Of a DNA stretch of 57,022 nt, positions 45,999 through 54,140 are shown piece after piece. The notes under the pieces were generated by a model that searched no databases, had not been told where the DNA came from, and saw only the letters and a program-made list of their open reading frames with translations. The position numbers and the translations under genes were made by a program. Location: UHGV virus genome UHGV-1526745; one strand, 5' to 3'. Position 1 is the stretch's first letter. Each line of letters opens with the position of its first letter. Source of the stretch: a virus.

Positions 45999-46289
45999 TT
46001 AATGGTAGCGGACTTTATCCAGGGGTTTTTCCCCTAAATGGCGTGGTTGCGTTGCGTGGTAGTAGCTGCCGCTTTCATTTTCCGTATACCATTTTACTGA
46101 TCCTTTGCGACGTTCTTTAATGCTATTTGGTTTGCATCTTTCCTCGTTTGCAAATCGAATAGCTTTATCCACATTGTCTGTTTTATTGATTGCAGGTGAT
46201 GATTTTCTTTCGTTTTCTCTTTTTATCCTTCTGCGTTCCCTGGCATTCATTTTGCTATCACATTTACCATATATAATTGTAACGCTCAT
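45999..46289 (-). CDS. putative N-like antitermination protein (arginine-rich motif)
   Basis: First gene of leftward operon; MNARERRRIKRENERK resembles lambdoid N ARM; start may be internal (46250). Confidence 0.35.
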   Translation of the reverse strand: MSVTIIYGKCDSKMNARERRRIKRENERKSSPAINKTDNVDKAIRFANEERCKPNSIKERRKGSVKWYTENESGSYYHATQPRHLGEKPLDKVRYH

Positions 46290-46750
46290 AATCTGATCTC
46301 CGTATATCCTTGATGATACTTAATAAAAAATCATCTTCGTTAATTGCCGCACTTCCAGCGGCTGACCAGATTGTTAATGAGCGGCTTAACATCTTTCAAC
46401 TAATCCCGCAATCATCGCCGTTCCCGGCGTGACCTTGCTCACTCCAAGCAAGCTGACTCGTCGCCTTGCGTGCGGTTTCGTGGGGGATGTAACGCTTTAA
46501 ACACCCCATGCGCCTTGTTATCAGTGCCGCTTTCGGTCCCCCATCGGGGAGTTACTCCACGGTTGACAAGGTGTTAAGCCTGATTTTTAAAGTGCCAGGA
46601 AGTTGCTTTTGTTACCTGCGCCCTTCCTTTGACTCGCAATATACGCCCCGTAAAACATCGAGTCAATCCATTTTGTATACTTTTTTAAAATATTTTATAT
46701 GCCATTGATATTTAAATAATAAATAACGTTTTCTGTTTACGTTTTGGTGT

Positions 46751-46784
46751 TTTCCAGGCAAAGAAAAGCCGCCATTCGGCGGCT
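46751..46784 (-). terminator. rho-independent terminator after repressor gene
   Basis: Hairpin AGCCGCC-ATTC-GGCGGCT 6 nt after repressor stop, followed on minus strand by TTTCTTT. Confidence 0.5.
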
Positions 46785-46789
46785 AATGT

Positions 46790-47437
46790 TTATGGCAGGT
46801 TTACGATCTTCGCATCAACCACCACGCCTATAATTTTTGATTCTGGATTCATAGGGATTGGCGGATACAGCGGATTGAGCGAACGTAAAAGCCTTTGACC
46901 TCCATCAATAATCAACTGTTTAAACGTCGGTATCTGCCCTTCCTCAAGCTGGGCTATAACCAGTTTGCCGTCAATAGCTGGCGCGTGCGGGTCCACAAGT
47001 ATCATCGTCCCCGCCGGGATGCTCAACCCCTGCGGCGCGTTCATTGATTCACCTTTGGCAACCAGCCAGTAACTGTCATCTGAACAAATAACGCTAGTCG
47101 TAACGTGTCGTAATGCTGAACGCCTTGCGTCATCCATATTGTTTACTGTGTCCTTCCAGTCAATAACCGGGTAACTACCTAAATCACGCGGCGGCACGGC
47201 CTGAAGTGTATTAGAAACAGAATCATCAATGACCATGCCATCATGTGTAACAGTAAACTGCCGACGACCAAGCTCGCGCATAATCCGCGCAATATCTTCA
47301 AGATTTGGCTCTCGGCGACCGTTCAGCCAGTGTGACAGGCCGCCTTTAGTTATCCCCATACGATCCGCGAGCGAATCCTGGCTCATGCCCTGCGCCCGCA
47401 TGAGCTGCTTTGCTAAGTCATACCATTTTGTTTTCAT
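46790..47437 (-). CDS. CI-like repressor (HTH_XRE + S24 LexA-like peptidase)
   Basis: N-terminal HTH (QDSLADRMGITKGGLSHWLNGRREP), C-terminal KGESM / ILVDP autocleavage-type region. Confidence 0.85.
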   Translation of the reverse strand: MKTKWYDLAKQLMRAQGMSQDSLADRMGITKGGLSHWLNGRREPNLEDIARIMRELGRRQFTVTHDGMVIDDSVSNTLQAVPPRDLGSYPVIDWKDTVNNMDDARRSALRHVTTSVICSDDSYWLVAKGESMNAPQGLSIPAGTMILVDPHAPAIDGKLVIAQLEEGQIPTFKQLIIDGGQRLLRSLNPLYPPIPMNPESKIIGVVVDAKIVNLP

Positions 47438-47439
47438 GT

Positions 47440-47742
47440 CGCTACCCTATAACCTCAAAAAGTTTGATGCAAGTCACAAAACGTGTATTTTAAGCCTTGA
47501 TCTTAAAATTCCATTTTGTAAACTTGCAGACAAGGTAAGGCCATACTTGCAAAGACGCAAGGAAAAAGATAACGGAAGGCACAAAAAGGCACTTACCTTA
47601 TGCTCTTTAAAAATCCGGTGTCGCTGCGAAGCGAAAAACAAATATCACGCAACGGCGGGATCTGTTGAGCGGTCAGTCACTGCTATCTAATGCTAATGGG
47701 ATGCCCGCCCGCGCGTTCACTCTAACCATAGGAGAAAATGCG
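47440..47742. promoter_or_regulatory. right operator/promoter region
   Basis: Divergent intergenic region; inverted repeats CTTGCAGACAAG and CTTGCAAAGACGCAAG (47523..47562) plus CCATTTTGTA motif. Confidence 0.4.
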
Positions 47743-48000
47743 ATGAGTATAAACATGATTAGTAAAGCATGGAACGTAAAACTTAATAGCCCGATTCAAA
47801 AACTTGTCTTAATGGCTCTGGCTGAAAAGGCAGATAACAAAGGACGGGTACATGATGCATCACGCAAAGAAGTAGCCGCAATGTGTGAACTTCCTGTTCA
47901 TACGGTACATGATGCCTTCGCCGCGTTAATGGATAAAGGATTTGTTTGTCGTCTTGATGCATTCAGTGATGTCTATGTAGTGATGTTGCCGGAGGGATGA
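47743..48000 (+). CDS. winged-HTH DNA-binding protein (Cro/CII-position regulator or replication-associated)
   Basis: ATG after AGGAGAAA RBS inside track ORF 47665..48000; first rightward gene. Confidence 0.5.
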   Translation: MSINMISKAWNVKLNSPIQKLVLMALAEKADNKGRVHDASRKEVAAMCELPVHTVHDAFAALMDKGFVCRLDAFSDVYVVMLPEG

Positions 48001-48003
48001 TCT

Positions 48004-49056
48004 ATGAAGTGGTTTAAGCATGACAGCGATGCGAACCGCGATGAAAAACTTCAAAACGTTTTGTTAGATTATGGCCTGGAAGGGTACGGGCTTTATTGGT
48101 ATTGCCTCGAACTAATAACTTATGACGTAGATCAGCACAATCTGACTTTTGACCTACGACATGACGCGAGAATCATTGCGCGAAACGTCGGATCGACTGA
48201 AAAACGTATAGAAGAAATGATGAAATACTTCATCGAAATTGGTTTGTTTGAATGTTCTCAAGGCCACATAACTTGTTTAAAGTTATTGAAAAGGCTTGAC
48301 CAATCAATGACTTCTAAAAGCGCGTACAGGGCCGCCATAAACACAGCTAAGGAGCAATTAAAATTAGAAAAGTTAATCAATCCAACACAAAAAGGTCATG
48401 ATAGGGTCATGACCGGGTCAGGAAAGGGTCATGAATTAGAATTAGAAGTAGAAGAAGAAAGAGAAAAAGATATATACACTTCGTGTATTGTCGAAAATGA
48501 ACAAAAAATGGTCAATCATGATGGCGTAAACGAAGCGGCGTTGCGTTGCCTGGCCTTCTACAACGACAAGGCAGGATGCAAATGTCGTGATGCGAAGCCA
48601 TTCATCGAACTACTGACAGAAACAAAAACACGTAAAGCGTATACGGAGGATGAGATCACATTAGTGATTGAGTGGGCTTTAACGCAATGGCGTAGCCGTG
48701 GTGGAACACCTAAGCCTATCAATATTTGCCGGGTAACTAAATTTGATGGGTATCTGACTGATGCTGAACAATGGCGCAAACTGTCAGCCACTGCAAACGC
48801 TGCCGACGTGGTGGAAGCATTTAACAGCACGTTTGACGGCCTGTTACCACCTGTCGAACTGGATCGGGATCTTGAACGCAAGATCTATGCGTTCACTGAC
48901 TACCTGAAAGACAAAAGCATTAACGGCTTTGTCGCCTACTTCGAAACATTCAAAAACACGGCTTCAGATTTTTACTTCGGCAATGGCTTCACAGCGACAC
49001 TTGATTTCCTGCTTAAACCAAAAACGCTACGCGACACACGCGCAGGCGCTCTTTGA
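48004..49056 (+). CDS. replication protein, DUF4373 (Lin1244-like) N-terminal domain
   Basis: MKWFKHDSDANRDEKL... start characteristic of DUF4373 (recalled). Confidence 0.55.
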   Translation: MKWFKHDSDANRDEKLQNVLLDYGLEGYGLYWYCLELITYDVDQHNLTFDLRHDARIIARNVGSTEKRIEEMMKYFIEIGLFECSQGHITCLKLLKRLDQSMTSKSAYRAAINTAKEQLKLEKLINPTQKGHDRVMTGSGKGHELELEVEEEREKDIYTSCIVENEQKMVNHDGVNEAALRCLAFYNDKAGCKCRDAKPFIELLTETKTRKAYTEDEITLVIEWALTQWRSRGGTPKPINICRVTKFDGYLTDAEQWRKLSATANAADVVEAFNSTFDGLLPPVELDRDLERKIYAFTDYLKDKSINGFVAYFETFKNTASDFYFGNGFTATLDFLLKPKTLRDTRAGAL

Positions 49057-49444
49057 CCAACCACGATTCGCAAAAATCCAAAATTACCCACAAAACAACC
49101 TCACCAGCGAGCTAAAACACGCATGGTGCTACGATTGCATATCTTTAGCTATTTAGCTCGTTATAGAGCGTTTTAGAGAGGATTTTAAAATGGACGGTAA
49201 ACACGTTTTCGCCCTGGCCTTTGCCATCGCTGCTGCAATCGCTGTTAACGTCGCTTTGTTCGGCGGTTTGTTCCTTCTTATCAATCCATAACCTTCATAC
49301 CAGCCTGTAAATCAAAAATTAGCCACCTGAGAGCGCCTCTGACGCAATAAGACACTGCAACCTGTGCAAACGGGTTACGCGGTGGGATTTTTGCGTTGTA
49401 GCACGTCTGAGGCGTTATATATAAAATTAAGAAAAGAGGTACAT

Positions 49445-50500
49445 ATGATTGCCACTTATCATGTGAAACTAAATTGTAAGGACACGCAATTACTATCTGT
49501 TAATAATCTTGTTTCTGAACTTGAAATCGATAGGCTTAAATCATTTGTTAAATACTCTGATCTTTACGGATTTGAGGAATACAAGGATTTTATTATTGAT
49601 GGTGATGATGTGTATATCACACCTATAACGTTTATTAGATTCGTTACACCTGGTAAATATAGACATTATGAATATAATGAAAATTGGGTTAAGCCAGTTA
49701 TTGAATCTTGTGGATTAGTTGATTTACAAGATGTGTTTAATAAATATTCAAATAATACCAGAAAAGATAGTCCTTATGCTTATAATTATGTTTTATGGTG
49801 TAACAACTATGTTGAAACTAGTGATACTCCCGGGCGATGCTCTGTGTATGTGTCAAAGGAAGATGCTGAAAAGTATAAAAAATGGTTGTTCGTTACTCGC
49901 GGAGTATCAATAGAAAAACTATGGGTAAGGTTGTTTCATTCAAGCGATATTGCAGATCCAGATACGTTTTTAAATGAACATCTTAATAATGATGAGTTTA
50001 CCATTGATTTAAATATTGAATATTTTACAGTTAAAACAAATTATGGATATGAAAGATATATTAGCGATAAGATAGCGGAAAAGTATCATACATGGGGTCA
50101 AAATAAAGGTCTTAGTAATAATTTTGAATGCGGTAATTATAACGACATAGAAAACTTTATTGAATTAAAAAGCGACAAGAATGTAATTGAGGAAATAAAA
50201 AGGGAATGTGACGAGAAATTATCAGAAATGAGTTATAATTGTAAAAATATGATTAGGAAGCGTTATGAACATGCTGGATTAACTATGTACGAAAAACTAA
50301 AAGGAGTTAAATTAATAAGGCAATATCCTGTTAATGTTGCTGGCAACAAGTATTTTATTGATGGCTACGATCTTGTGAATAATATTGCTGTAGAAATTGA
50401 TGAATCACATCACAAACGGCAAGCAAAAAGCGATGCGATAAGACAAAAACGCATTGAGGATTATTTGGGGTGCAAGTTTTTTCGTTGTGCTATATCCTGA
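49445..50500 (+). CDS. AT-rich moron protein with C-terminal DUF559/Vsr-like nuclease-type domain
   Basis: ATG after AAGAGG RBS; C-terminus YFIDGYDLVNNIAVEIDESHH...DAIRQKRIEDYLGCKFFRC fits DUF559-type pattern; strongly AT-rich versus neighbours. Confidence 0.55.
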   Translation: MIATYHVKLNCKDTQLLSVNNLVSELEIDRLKSFVKYSDLYGFEEYKDFIIDGDDVYITPITFIRFVTPGKYRHYEYNENWVKPVIESCGLVDLQDVFNKYSNNTRKDSPYAYNYVLWCNNYVETSDTPGRCSVYVSKEDAEKYKKWLFVTRGVSIEKLWVRLFHSSDIADPDTFLNEHLNNDEFTIDLNIEYFTVKTNYGYERYISDKIAEKYHTWGQNKGLSNNFECGNYNDIENFIELKSDKNVIEEIKRECDEKLSEMSYNCKNMIRKRYEHAGLTMYEKLKGVKLIRQYPVNVAGNKYFIDGYDLVNNIAVEIDESHHKRQAKSDAIRQKRIEDYLGCKFFRCAIS

Positions 50501-50534
50501 TGTATACAAAATGTAAACCTGAGGAATTAACATT

Positions 50535-51653
50535 ATGTCGCAAAGAAAAATCAGCGATGAGCAATTGATCGCTGAATATAACAACGGTTTAACGTACAAG
50601 CAGATTGCTGAAAAATATGGCATGTCAAAACGCAATGTCGAGCGCCTGGGCGCAAAACTGGCGAAACGTGGTTTATTATCAACACGCCGCGCTCCTGGTT
50701 TTGGCGTCAATGGCGAGTCGTTGCTAGTCGATAAGAACGGCAATGTTATCATGCGCTGGATTAAAACAGCCCGTGACCGCGAAGAAATGGAACAGCTAAT
50801 GGAAGCGGCCCGCGACGCTTTCACTGATGAAATACCACGCGCGGAGGCTGTGCCAGTGCCTGAAATTGATTTTCAAAAAAGCCTGGCACTTTATCCGGTG
50901 TTTGATCTGCATATCGGGGCGCTTGCTCATAAAGCTGAATGCGGTGAGAGCTACGATACTGGGATCGCTGAGCGCGTGTTGAATGACTTCTTTGACTACG
51001 CTGTTGGCGCTGCTCCGATGTCTGAAAAAGCTGTTTTACTTCTCGGCGGTGATGTGCTTCACACTGACGGCCTGTTACCAGTGACGCCATCAAGTAATCA
51101 CGTTTTAGATTGTGATTCACGCTACGCAAAACTGGTTTATGTGGCGATCCGGTCGGTCCGGCGTGCGGTCGGGAAGATGTTACTAAATCATAAGGATGTC
51201 GAGATCCAGGTATTATCCGGTAATCACGACCAATCAGGTATGATCTGGCTACGTGCTGCGCTTGCGGCTTTTTACGAAGATGAGCCGCGCGTGACTGTTG
51301 ACGTGTCACCTGCCATTGTCCACCACACACAGTATGGCAAAACATTCCTTGCTTACCACCACGGGCACACTATCAAAAAGCCGGAAAATTTATTGTCTGC
51401 TTGCGTAGCTGACTGGCGGGAGGATTTCGGAAGGTCTGTGGCTGTTTACGCTCACACTGGACATCTGCACCATCAATCAGTTGTTGAAACATCACTTGGA
51501 ATAGTTGAGCACCACGGCACATTAGCTGGCAAAGACGCATATTCAACTAATGGCGGCTGGCGGTCGCGGCGTCTGGCAGCGGTGATTATTTACAGCCCGG
51601 ATCATGGGGAAATTGGGCGCTTTGTTTATTACCCTGAATATTCCATTTTGTAA
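50535..51653 (+). CDS. HTH domain fused to calcineurin-like metallophosphoesterase
   Basis: N-terminal LTYKQIAEKYGMSKRNVERL HTH; DLH, GGDVLHTDG, SGNHD and TGHLHH motifs. Confidence 0.6.
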   Translation: MSQRKISDEQLIAEYNNGLTYKQIAEKYGMSKRNVERLGAKLAKRGLLSTRRAPGFGVNGESLLVDKNGNVIMRWIKTARDREEMEQLMEAARDAFTDEIPRAEAVPVPEIDFQKSLALYPVFDLHIGALAHKAECGESYDTGIAERVLNDFFDYAVGAAPMSEKAVLLLGGDVLHTDGLLPVTPSSNHVLDCDSRYAKLVYVAIRSVRRAVGKMLLNHKDVEIQVLSGNHDQSGMIWLRAALAAFYEDEPRVTVDVSPAIVHHTQYGKTFLAYHHGHTIKKPENLLSACVADWREDFGRSVAVYAHTGHLHHQSVVETSLGIVEHHGTLAGKDAYSTNGGWRSRRLAAVIIYSPDHGEIGRFVYYPEYSIL

Positions 51654-51671
51654 ACCGGAGGCAATAACATA

Positions 51672-53093
51672 ATGGTAACTGAGCAAATAAACTCACTACG
51701 GCAGGAACGTGAAGCGTCAGTTATCGGCGGGCTACTGTTAGGTGGCCTTACTCCTAACGCGCAAGATGTTCTCGCCACACTTGATCCTGAAGTGTTCACG
51801 ATCCCGCTTTATAAACGTGCGTTTGAAGTTATCCGGGCGCAAGCCAGAAACAGAAATCTTATCGACGCGTTATTGGTTGGCGATGAGATTGGCAATGAAA
51901 ACTTTGTACCGCTAATGCAAACGGCACGATCGTGCCCTTCTGCTGCCAACCTGAAAGGATATGCGCAACTACTACAGGAAGAACACCAGCGTCGGCAAAT
52001 GCTGGAACTAATGGAAGACATTCGCTACAAGCTGGAAACAGGGACGCTTGAAGTCGTCAGGGAGACGATGAAAGATTTTGATTCCCGGTATTCAAAATTA
52101 AAGGTAACAAAAGATCAAATTATCCCGGTGCTGTTGCGCGATGCGGTCCAGGAATACACGGAAGTGTTAAGTAAACGCATGGAGTGTGGCGTGAACTCTG
52201 ACAACATCAAAACAGGGATTGACCCACTCGACGAAATGTTAGGCGGCATTAACGCTACTGATCTGGTGCTTATCGCCGGACGCCCAGGGTCTGGTAAATC
52301 GGCGTTGGCGTTGGCAATTGCCCGCGCGGCGGCTGAACGCCCATACCCTGGAGGCGAAGGTCAGCGGGTCGGCGTTTTGCTGTTCACGCTTGAAATGTCG
52401 CTCGATCAGATGACTGAACGCGCTATCGCTGGCGCAGGGAACTTGTCAACGGATTGCTTACGTAATCCGGTAAAACTGGATGACGAAGGATGGGCGCACG
52501 TTGCCCAGGGAATGAGCGCACTTGCTGATCTCGATGTGTGGATTGTTGATGCATCACAGTTAACTGTCGAGGAAATACGCGCCACAACTGAACGAATGAA
52601 GCAGGATTATCCCAACCTGGGTATGGTAATGATTGACTACATCGGGTTAATGAAGCTGGCTAAGGCAGAACGTCACGATCTCGCTGTAGGGCAATTGTCG
52701 TGGTCATTGAAAATGATGGCGAAAGAATTGCGCGTACCAGTGGCGGCGCTGGCGCAATTATCCCGCCGCGTCGAGGAACGACCGAACAAGCGACCGAACA
52801 ATTCTGATCTGCGCGATTCCGGCAATCTTGAACAGGACGCAGACCGGATCATCATGGTATACCGCGACGGCTACTACAACGAACAATCTGTTGCACGCGA
52901 ATACATGGAGATTATCGTTTCAAAAAACCGTCACGGAAAAACCGGGACTGTTTACCAGCGTTTTGACGACAACGGCAACATATTACCGTGTGACCAGGCC
53001 CGCGCGGCGTCAGCTTGCATCCAGTCAATGCAACAACGTCCGGCGGTAAGCCGATTCTCGCCACGAAACAACCAGAATAAAGCATCTTTTTAA
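51672..53093 (+). CDS. dnaB: replicative DNA helicase (DnaB family)
   Basis: 473 aa; Walker A GRPGSGKS; DnaB-type N- and C-terminal domains. Confidence 0.9.
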   Translation: MVTEQINSLRQEREASVIGGLLLGGLTPNAQDVLATLDPEVFTIPLYKRAFEVIRAQARNRNLIDALLVGDEIGNENFVPLMQTARSCPSAANLKGYAQLLQEEHQRRQMLELMEDIRYKLETGTLEVVRETMKDFDSRYSKLKVTKDQIIPVLLRDAVQEYTEVLSKRMECGVNSDNIKTGIDPLDEMLGGINATDLVLIAGRPGSGKSALALAIARAAAERPYPGGEGQRVGVLLFTLEMSLDQMTERAIAGAGNLSTDCLRNPVKLDDEGWAHVAQGMSALADLDVWIVDASQLTVEEIRATTERMKQDYPNLGMVMIDYIGLMKLAKAERHDLAVGQLSWSLKMMAKELRVPVAALAQLSRRVEERPNKRPNNSDLRDSGNLEQDADRIIMVYRDGYYNEQSVAREYMEIIVSKNRHGKTGTVYQRFDDNGNILPCDQARAASACIQSMQQRPAVSRFSPRNNQNKASF

Positions 53094-53172
53094 TTAACTT
53101 GAGCAAACGGCTTACCGGAAAGTTTACCGCTTTCTGGTGGCTGTTTTCGCGCTTAAATTGAGGCTAAAAACA

Positions 53173-53730
53173 ATGAGCATTGAACTTGAAACAAAAATTA
53201 TCAACATCCTTGAACTGGATGGCATCGACACAATGCAGCAGTTACGCCAGAAAACAGGATTATCAGCGGAATATGACGAAGCAGGATGCTTGCCTGAGAC
53301 AATTAAACACTTAATCGACACTGGCATTGTCGAGCGTGTATATACATATTTCGGACCACGCCGCCGCTTGCTTGGTTATCGGATTAAATATTTGTATGCA
53401 CAACGTCGCGATCGTGTGGCGGCGTTATTTAGTGACTACAGCGTCAAAAAGCGTATGCGTGACATTAGCGCTGAAACAGGTATCCCGTGGAATTATCTTT
53501 CGCGCACCCTGCGTTTAATGGTGCTTGATGAGACACTTTGCATTGATACAAATAAACATGGCCTTAATTTTTATTCACTGTTTAAACCTGGGCGCTTCGG
53601 TCACGCTAATGATCTTGCATTTGATTTTGACAGCCGCCTGAATGAATACCGGAAAAATAACGGCCTGCTGCCGGATAAACCAGTATTTGAGATCGAAAAA
53701 CTTAATGGTGAAACTGGATTGGAATTATGA
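53173..53730 (+). CDS. hypothetical protein
   Basis: Internal ATG after GAGG RBS in track ORF 53137..53730. Confidence 0.4.
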   Translation: MSIELETKIINILELDGIDTMQQLRQKTGLSAEYDEAGCLPETIKHLIDTGIVERVYTYFGPRRRLLGYRIKYLYAQRRDRVAALFSDYSVKKRMRDISAETGIPWNYLSRTLRLMVLDETLCIDTNKHGLNFYSLFKPGRFGHANDLAFDFDSRLNEYRKNNGLLPDKPVFEIEKLNGETGLEL

Positions 53731-53933
53731 GACGTGTAATCTTTTATTTAGTTGAAACATTCATTGATGAATCACATTTCCGTTTCCCATGCAATTCTTG
53801 CGGCGCGATGGTTTATACACCGCCACTAATGCGGAAATATAAACACGTAAAATTTAACCGGTTTTTTGTACCAATGCGTGATGCACTGCGCGCGCTGCGC
53901 GGTGAATTACGAAACACAATGCGTATTGTGTGA
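53727..53933 (+). CDS. hypothetical protein (68 aa)
   Basis: Track ORF. Confidence 0.3.
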   Translation: MRRVIFYLVETFIDESHFRFPCNSCGAMVYTPPLMRKYKHVKFNRFFVPMRDALRALRGELRNTMRIV

Positions 53934-53942
53934 GGTGGCGTT

Positions 53943-54140
53943 ATGGATAAGGAATTAGATTTAACAGTTGAAGACCTGAGCACGATTGCGGAATACATGC
54001 GCGGCGATGATCCTGATCGTCCTGTCGTCGTTGATATGAAAAAACTAAAAAACGACCATATGGCTAGTTCAAGGCTCATTTCTTTATGGGCGATCATGTA
54101 TGCGCGTGCACCGCGTGAAAATAGTAACGGTGTATCATGA
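53943..54140 (+). CDS. hypothetical protein (65 aa)
   Basis: Track ORF. Confidence 0.3.
   Translation: MDKELDLTVEDLSTIAEYMRGDDPDRPVVVDMKKLKNDHMASSRLISLWAIMYARAPRENSNGVS

Follow-up and report, generated by a model that had tools for sequence, protein, structure and literature searches.

A low-GC cassette in the replication module of a mEpimmI-type phage genome encodes a predicted homing-type endonuclease with a Vsr-like catalytic domain

We analyzed a single gene and its surroundings in the UHGV virus genome UHGV-1526745, a stretch of 57,022 nucleotides (nt) that is referred to below, at its full length, as the window. The gene lies on the plus strand of the replication module of an E. coli prophage, between a replication initiator of the Lin1244_N/DUF4373 type (48004-49056, +), which matches phrog_20981 and replication-initiation PHROGs, and a helix-turn-helix (HTH) and metallophosphoesterase-type protein (50535-51653, +), which matches phrog_704 ("DNA repair exonuclease"). 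A preceding sequence-only reading had already placed it between these two neighbors. Further to the left of the initiator are a LexA/cI-type repressor on the minus strand and a small HTH gene, and a DnaB helicase gene lies to the right of the HTH-metallophosphoesterase gene. The region is that of the mEpimmI group of temperate coliphages (PMC11893012), which includes mEp021, mEp515, mEp554, mEp044, and MagusPhagus.

The open reading frame (ORF) spans 49364-50500 (+), with a GTG start listed by the ORF program at 49364. The true start is the ATG at 49445, which is preceded at a distance of 6 nt by the ribosome-binding site AAGAGG (49433-49438, +; AAGGAGG in the E. coli M15 counterpart), and the coding sequence (49445-50500, +) specifies a product of 351 amino acids (aa) plus a stop codon, MIATYHVKLN...FFRCAIS. 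The GTG start, with a product of 378 aa, was dropped, since its first 81 nt are conserved flank that is also found in genomes with an empty site, and ATG 49445 with its good ribosome-binding site is the start in all homologues. The sequence-only reading thus had the right ORF and the right protein, whereas the start that it gave, 49365, is the upstream in-frame GTG in the conserved flank. The GC content of the coding sequence is 0.308, and 0.233 at third codon positions, compared to 0.43-0.51 and 0.38-0.52 in the four flanking genes. It is the lowest-GC 1,056-nt stretch across the window (z = -4.3), in agreement with the strongly AT-rich composition noticed earlier. No Rfam family was found in 46000-54000 at E <= 1, and the gene is intergenic and free-standing, outside any intron or intein. 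No tRNA genes were found across the window.

Homology with E. coli STEC308 and phage MagusPhagus, two relatives that have an empty site, ends at 49406 and restarts at 50503, 2 bases past the stop codon. The segment 49407-50502 (+) is therefore an insert, or cassette, of 1,096 bp that stands in place of 15 bp of the empty site. The left border of this slot is formed by a terminator-like stem-loop with a U-run (49341-49397, +), which is conserved in all relatives and has a folding energy of -26.9 kcal/mol (z -4.55; none of 200 shuffled sequences folded equally well). The right border is a conserved linker of 33-34 nt, TGTATACAAAATGTAAACCTGAGGAATTAACATT (50501-50534, +), with the consensus (g/a)TATACAwwwTGTAAACCGGAGGAATTAACATT, which provides the ribosome-binding site of the metallophosphoesterase gene. 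Every cassette type in the relatives starts just 3' of the hairpin and stops at its own stop codon, followed by the linker. In mEp044, one linker copy stands behind each of two cassettes. The M15-type loci have 143 extra nt and then a second, diverged linker copy before the metallophosphoesterase gene, which suggests the remnant of a second cassette; this extra segment of E. coli M15 (L001 3993-4169) is also present in L024 and L030. The GC content of all cassettes is 0.31-0.45, against approximately 0.50 in the backbone, and that of the window cassette is the lowest.

The hairpin is situated within the early rightward operon, immediately 5' of the slot. Given the Nus dependence of mEpimmI phages, it may be an early terminator that is subject to antitermination. 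A consensus scan revealed no convincing forward-strand sigma-70 site upstream of the insert ORF. The single forward-strand match (9/12) starts at 49479, within the ORF, and shuffled sequences give as many; by eye, a weak TTGTAG-18-TATAAA is the only promoter-like sequence upstream. The 70 nt at 49340-49410, on the left side of the insert, are similar to the final 70 nt of the ORF (50431-50501), in register with both junctions, with the matches GACGCAATAAGACA / GATGCGATAAGACA and TTTTTGCGTTGTAGCACGTCTGA / TTTTTTCGTTGTGCTATATCCTGA. Translation in frame gives SDAIRHC...DFCVVARL for the left flank and SDAIRQK...KFFRCAIS for the ORF end. The score of this alignment was reached by 0 of 2,000 shuffles, yet about four other loci of the window score equally, and its significance is modest. 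The likeness may go back to an earlier nuclease cassette, reflect microhomology that serves the exchange of cassettes, or be due to chance.

A related replication module was found at 35 loci in 5,426 complete E. coli genomes, two of which (M15 and Ecol_244) harbor the cassette gene. Many assemblies encode the exact insert protein, without exception at this slot, and four IMG/VR loci with the gene are syntenic with the window. No other insertion site and no other host species was found, a scan of GTDB species representatives having given no relative. Together with the empty sites and the alternative cassettes of close relatives, this distribution bears out the earlier suggestion of a horizontally acquired single-gene insert: the gene shows sporadic presence and absence at one precise site among close relatives, and the insert is dispensable and discrete, in a cassette hotspot of the mEpimmI-type (mEp021-like) replication module. 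A role as an accessory replication or recombination nuclease for the phage's own DNA, for example in the processing of intermediates with the metallophosphoesterase, would fit the position between the replication initiator and the metallophosphoesterase and DnaB genes. However, most relatives lack the gene or have an unrelated one in its place, including the viable phages MagusPhagus, mEp515, mEp021, and mEp554, which excludes a core replication role; the gene does not encode a conserved core replication protein. Its foreign composition, and the occurrence of members of its nuclease family in unrelated contexts (before lysis genes and next to gene 32 of T4-like phages), likewise speak against an accessory role, which we consider very improbable.

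The cassette and the backbone have decoupled histories. The cassette of IMGVR_2700989400 shares 94.5% identity with that of the window and the flanks share 83-86%, and in Ecol_244 the corresponding values are 78.9% and 85-90%; the right flank of the window is nearest (94-99%) to genomes with other cassettes. Among three copies of the gene, with dS up to 1.3, the ratio of nonsynonymous to synonymous substitution rates (dN/dS) is 0.10-0.13 in the N-terminal part and 0.05-0.13 in the C-terminal part. Both halves of the insert protein are thus under purifying selection.

The slot is occupied by several other genes in the relatives. E. coli FAH and mEp021 (mEp021_12) carry DUF4379/CapR zinc-finger repeats joined to T5orf172/MUG113, strain 127 and mEp515 (mEp515_13) carry Bro-N joined to KilAC, NRZ96606 has Rha joined to KilAC, and strain 190 has Rha alone. 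In mEp044, the slot holds two genes, one for Bro-N with a homologous nuclease module and a following one for Rha with KilAC. The Bro-N part of mEp044_12, which precedes the Vsr-like nuclease, is 64% identical to the N-terminus of mEp515_13, and mEp044_11 (Rha and KilAC) is 93% identical to the C-terminus of the same protein. These sequences give the impression that a "nuclease - linker - Rha" segment entered a Bro-N-KilAC gene. The segments compared (L011 1617-2971 of mEp044 and L004 2927-3670 of mEp515) show domain-level shuffling within the slot. A second endonuclease site is located 1.1 kb downstream, where an HNH "homing endonuclease" gene lies between the metallophosphoesterase gene and dnaB in mEp515, mEp021, and mEp010 (L004 4773-5327, mEp515_11; L010 3840-4343, mEp021_10); at this site the window has an 18-nt gap (51654-51671).

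A comparable slot exists in the T4-like Krischvirus, where the region between gene 32 and frd is variable. Rha with a Vsr-like nuclease occurs there in pEJ01 alone (1 of 64 genomes), Phi1 has a 460-aa DUF4379/CapR "endonuclease" at this position, and other genomes have other small ORFs. The corresponding coordinates are L012 2282-2719 for pEJ01 and L027 1192-2574 for Phi1; L025 and L026 also belong to this set. The mEpimmI slot and the Krischvirus gene 32 slot therefore share two cassette classes, although the phage lineages are unrelated.

The C-terminal part of the insert protein (aa 270-351; 50252-50497, +) is a Vsr/DUF559-type PD-(D/E)xK nuclease domain with the topology alpha-beta-beta-beta-alpha-beta. 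Residue numbers in part of the raw search output carry one extra leading residue ("tool numbering"). The Pfam DUF559 (PF04480) match, at aa 284-340 in tool numbering, scored 22.2 bits and so passed the cutoff of 20.6 narrowly, and a profile of the module matches the DUF559 structure 3hrl with an E-value of 2.9e-4. A search of the PDB with the single protein sequence gave no meaningful match, and profiles were needed. The restriction-endonuclease-like core fold was found in the model of the nuclease domain. These results, together with the family counts given below, support the DUF559/Vsr-like nuclease fold that had been proposed for the C-terminus.

The catalytic stretch, I-D306-GYD ... E317-I-D319-E320-S-H322-H323 (50357-50413, +), has equivalents in AbaSI and PvuRts1I. 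An exhaustive HMMER search of 1.84 billion representatives found the module in 746 representative clusters. Across the best 150 of these, on which the domain counts below also rest, D306, E317, D319, E320, and H322/H323 (motif ID...EIDESHH) either do not vary or are conserved to at least 90%. The insert protein has the acidic metal ligands on beta2 and beta3 as well as the conserved histidine. The counterparts of D306, E317, D319, E320, H322, and H323 in AbaSI are D61, E72, D74, E75, H77, and H78, with identical spacing, and the PvuRts1I motif is EIDEAHH, which shares the pattern EIDExHH with the insert protein. The substitutions D61A and E75A in AbaSI and D57A and E71A in PvuRts1I abolish activity (PMC4081097). 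Because the catalytic residues match those whose mutation abolishes activity, the active site is predicted to be intact, with a complete metal-binding and catalytic set. Additionally, by their compatible spacing, E283, D306, H323, and D330 are candidates for the composite E-D-x-H-D signature, for which I-Bth0305I has D196, N208, H213, and D222; the sequence profile missed 3r3p. A long alpha-helix with conserved E275 and E283 (aa ~245-286; 50177-50302, +) leads into the nuclease core. The N-terminal helices of AbaSI make the dimer interface (PMC4081097), and by analogy the helix of the insert protein may be a spacer or a dimerisation helix.

The conservation of these residues also bears on another reading of the gene, namely that it encodes a regulatory DNA-binding protein like the "antirepressor-type" Bro/Rha-KilAC proteins of the slot, with the nuclease domain acting only as a binding or oligomerisation module. 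The Bro-N+KilAC and Rha+KilAC genes at the same position, and the joining of Bro-N to the nuclease module in mEp044 and to KilAC in mEp515, are consistent with such a role. A full catalytic constellation that is nearly invariant in 150 homologues would nevertheless be unexpected for a non-catalytic scaffold, and we regard this reading as quite improbable.

Apart from the insert protein's own cluster, all of the best 150 matches align with aa ~270-350 only, and the module is almost always C-terminal, in proteins of 130-400 aa. Pfam assigned DUF559 to 94 of them, MTES_1575 to 36, and PvuRts1I-like_N to 19. The N-terminal partners are Rha (24), NUMOD3 (19 by Pfam; a 58-member cluster by BLAST), Bro-N (7), and ORF6N (3), and more rarely AntA (2), HNH_repeat (2), KilA-N (1), and an I-HmuI NUMOD-like domain (1). 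The sister protein P0004 consists of three NUMOD3 repeats and the same nuclease module; NUMOD3 repeats are the hallmark DNA-binding motif of phage homing endonucleases. Structural neighbors of the nuclease-domain model in BFVD are annotated as "homing endonuclease". The BFVD entries also include fusions of the module to Bro-N in giant viruses (Borely moumouvirus, 35% identity, and Terrestrivirus), and "ALI motif" proteins of entomopoxviruses and an ascovirus contain it too. The design of an antirepressor-type head with a Vsr-like nuclease spans bacterial and eukaryotic viruses. No PHROGs v4 profile matches the C-terminal nuclease module, and family members are named in PHROGs after their heads, as "anti-repressor Ant", "Rha-like regulator", or, for NUMOD3, "homing endonuclease". 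This head-only naming is a likely source of systematic mis-annotation.

Another member of the family, P0003 (232 aa), combines a KilA-N-like region with a DUF559-type nuclease and is encoded in a lambdoid or P22-like E. coli prophage (L014-L017 5001-5699). Its gene is in a classic moron position, just 5' of the holin-lysozyme-Rz genes, and the L017 variant additionally has an HNH_3 gene between the lysis and terminase genes.

The kinship of the catalytic core with AbaSI, which gave the highest identity in the structural alignment of the nuclease domain (29%), points to a further alternative, a modification-dependent (type IV-like) restriction nuclease of the PvuRts1I/AbaSI kind that excludes phages with modified DNA, a reading akin to the exclusion or abortive-infection role that the sequence-only reading had put forward. 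The identical EIDExHH motif, the PvuRts1I-like_N assignments, and a PADLOC mREase_II match (E 2.3e-7) agree with it. That match, the sole one in a defence library, spans positions 37-101 of the 294-position model, and all matches of this kind are limited to the nuclease core of about 65 aa. In addition, the domain order is reversed relative to the 5-hydroxymethylcytosine-dependent enzymes PvuRts1I and AbaSI (PMC4081097), nothing resembling the SRA-like reader of modified cytosine is detectable, and the partners found in the family (NUMOD3, Rha, Bro-N) are sequence-specific DNA binders rather than readers of modified bases. The insert also lies in a phage cassette and not in a cellular defence locus, and its location in the early lytic operon, just 3' of the terminator-like hairpin and without a convincing promoter of its own, makes expression in a lysogen doubtful. 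We therefore consider a modification-dependent enzyme unlikely. The location and the restricted library match also leave the abortive-infection or exclusion nuclease and the anti-defence role suggested by the sequence-only reading without specific support.

The N-terminal region (aa 1-244; 49445-50176, +) is predicted to be the target-recognition part of the protein, and we infer that it binds DNA. In the exhaustive HMMER search, the best 150 of 746 matches included no relative of the N-terminal ~265 aa outside the protein's own cluster, and a word-indexed search with aa 1-262 alone gave no N-terminal homologue. No match in aa 1-265 was obtained with Pfam on three N-terminal sub-segments (E <= 10), PHROGs, or NCBIfam, and these libraries revealed no NUMOD-type motif there; likewise, Pfam and PHROG gave no KilA-N, Bro-N, or Rha domain. 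A phmmer comparison to the N-termini of 135 family members found none related to the region, and hhalign against the N-terminal clusters of family members gave probabilities below 1%. The impression that this part matches no recognised family was therefore correct. Two faint similarities were noted: aa 76-148 match the KilA-N-like part of P0003 (E 0.035, calculated for this one pair), and the N-terminus contains a 13-aa self-match, YVSKEDAEKYKKW / YISDKIAEKYHTW, with E 0.026 and the motif G..Y(V/I)S...AEKY..W. These hint at degenerate KilA-N-type modules, and are too little to claim them. In the AF2 model of the full protein, the N-terminus has a predicted local distance difference test score (pLDDT) below 50, as no more than three sequences align in this region, and Foldseek with this model was correspondingly weak. 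Given the dN/dS of ~0.1, the N-terminal part is a real protein domain.

On this evidence, we propose with moderate confidence that the insert gene encodes a two-part, site-directed, free-standing endonuclease of the homing type. The orphan N-terminal ~245 aa would recognise a specific DNA sequence, and the long helix would position the catalytic domains, and probably dimerise them, so that both strands are cut. The gene would be transcribed with the early rightward (replication) operon in lytic growth. The predicted target is the matching locus of related phages or prophages without the cassette, and repair of the break from the carrier genome would copy the cassette in (homing), or would at least exclude the local markers of the rival. 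Exclusion or competition is thus a plausible outcome of a homing-type enzyme. This proposal is based on the precise, sporadic, and compositionally foreign nature of the insert, on the family architecture, in which the module is fused to DNA-binding partners of homing endonucleases, and on the alternative occupants of the slot. It is further supported by the decoupled histories of cassette and backbone, by the precedent of the EDxHD family, by the HNH homing endonuclease at the second site in mEp515 and mEp021, by the Rha-headed Vsr-like nuclease and the CapR "endonuclease" in the Krischvirus gene 32 slot, and by the low dN/dS in both domains.

Several points weigh against this proposal. Cleavage, target site, and homing are all predicted, and the presumed targeting region has no detectable DNA-binding family and an unreliable model. 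The slot also houses cassettes that are not nucleases (Bro-N/Rha with KilAC), and the cassettes share short border sequences, so that ordinary homologous recombination could explain presence and absence without homing. No identity gradient toward the insert and no carrier-specific fixed substitutions were found within 200-250 nt of the flanks, in a test of co-conversion that has low power with three to five carrier lineages. In sequence, the nuclease resembles DUF559 and PvuRts1I more closely than it does I-Bth0305I, and the profile search missed the latter. Finally, a dS of ~1.3 combined with strong purifying selection is no less compatible with a useful gene that was kept over a long time than with a purely selfish one.

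The last point leads to the alternative that we take most seriously, although we consider it somewhat unlikely, namely a domesticated conflict nuclease that is derived from a homing enzyme, no longer homes, and is kept to cut co-resident or superinfecting phages or satellites, in the manner of ICP1 Odn or of marker-exclusion nucleases. Strong purifying selection on both domains at deep divergence, the confinement of the gene to one slot of one phage group, flanks that lack a homing signature, and an exchangeable accessory-gene locus that also houses Bro/Rha-KilAC proteins would all be expected of such a nuclease. Domestication of homing endonucleases has precedents, coliphages included (PMC10448857), and a DUF3987 protein and an integrase at the ends of the window imply that other mobile elements may be nearby. 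On the other hand, Odn-type chimeras show an N-terminus that was copied from the DNA-binding protein of the target, whereas in the searches above the N-terminus of the insert protein has no homologue outside its own cluster, and sequence data alone fail to separate domestication from active homing.

The predicted homing-type endonuclease can be compared with several described systems. In the EDxHD family, which includes I-Bth0305I and the free-standing T-even phage gene Hef, N-terminal DNA-binding modules precede a C-terminal Vsr-like nuclease (PMC3239194). The insert protein has this architecture of a targeting region followed by a Vsr-like nuclease, but it lacks NUMOD motifs, its N-terminal 265 aa are an orphan, and the profile of its module reaches DUF559 (3hrl), PvuRts1I, and AbaSI and not 3r3p, with the motif D...ExDExHH being of the PvuRts1I type. 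Vsr, DUF559, 3hrl, and 3r3p fall into one clade of the PD-(D/E)xK classification (PMC3424549). Cellular DUF559 proteins (Neisseria NGO0050, PDB 3hrl) and Vsr share the Pfam family and fold of the insert nuclease, but are stand-alone domains or repair enzymes for T:G mismatches. In comparison to Vsr, the insert nuclease is a minimal core of ~80 aa, without the zinc site or the intercalating tryptophans, carried on the 265-aa N-terminal region.

The closest parallel in location is the class that joins CapR/DUF4379 zinc fingers to T5orf172, a class of phage homing endonucleases whose genes cluster close to those of the replisome and are found together with other classes of endonuclease (PMC10448857), and of which Odn is a domesticated derivative (PMC10448857, PMC8263062). 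In sister prophages and phages its members lie in precisely this slot, and in Krischvirus they lie in the equivalent slot beside gene 32. Both types combine DNA-binding repeats or regions with a terminal nuclease, lie near replisome genes, have a GC content below that of the backbone, and share the left border CTGAGGCGTT. They differ in that T5orf172 is GIY-YIG-like and the insert nuclease has the PD-(D/E)xK Vsr-like fold, and their DNA-binding modules are unrelated. The kind of element is therefore a known one, a free-standing modular phage endonuclease with a Vsr-like head near replisome genes. New are the constrained orphan targeting region of 265 aa, the slot between hairpin and linker in mEpimmI phages, and the size of a family that is unannotated in PHROGs.

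We tentatively combine these elements into a broader reading, which as a whole we regard as rather unlikely. The mEpimmI phages would swap genes that consist of a DNA-targeting head and an effector at a dedicated exchange locus between the hairpin and the 33-nt linker, as would Krischvirus beside gene 32, and the cassette of the window would combine a new DNA-recognition fold with a domesticated weapon, rather than a selfish homing gene, that cuts one specific rival (a prophage, phage, or satellite) in lytic growth. If so, the Rha-, Bro-N-, and KilA-N-headed Vsr-like nucleases would form a general class of virus-against-virus nucleases that reaches giant and insect viruses.

If the homing-type assignment is true, temperate coliphages would be documented to carry Vsr-like homing-type endonucleases whose targeting domain lacks known relatives, and the N-terminal region would be a candidate for a new type of DNA-recognition module to go with a compact nuclease head of ~80 aa. 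Many phage proteins labelled "antirepressor" or "transcriptional regulator" would then probably be site-directed nucleases. No major concept would be changed, as free-standing nuclease genes near replisome genes are a known phage theme. The slot provides a tractable system in which swaps driven by nuclease cleavage can be set against border recombination, in a group of phages with a high prevalence in the human gut.

Additional features were noted elsewhere in the window. The DUF3987 protein (E 1.5e-95) is encoded at the left end (1181-2734, +), and the tyrosine integrase (Arm-DNA-bind_3 and Phage_integrase) at the right end (55591-56838, -), immediately behind the genes of the NinB region. 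A small ORF (49191-49292, +) in the gap that separates the initiator gene from the hairpin encodes a strongly hydrophobic peptide of 33 aa, MDGKHVFALAFAIAAAIAVNVALFGGLFLLINP, which is conserved and is called as a gene in mEp515 (mEp515_14), in MagusPhagus, and in assemblies.

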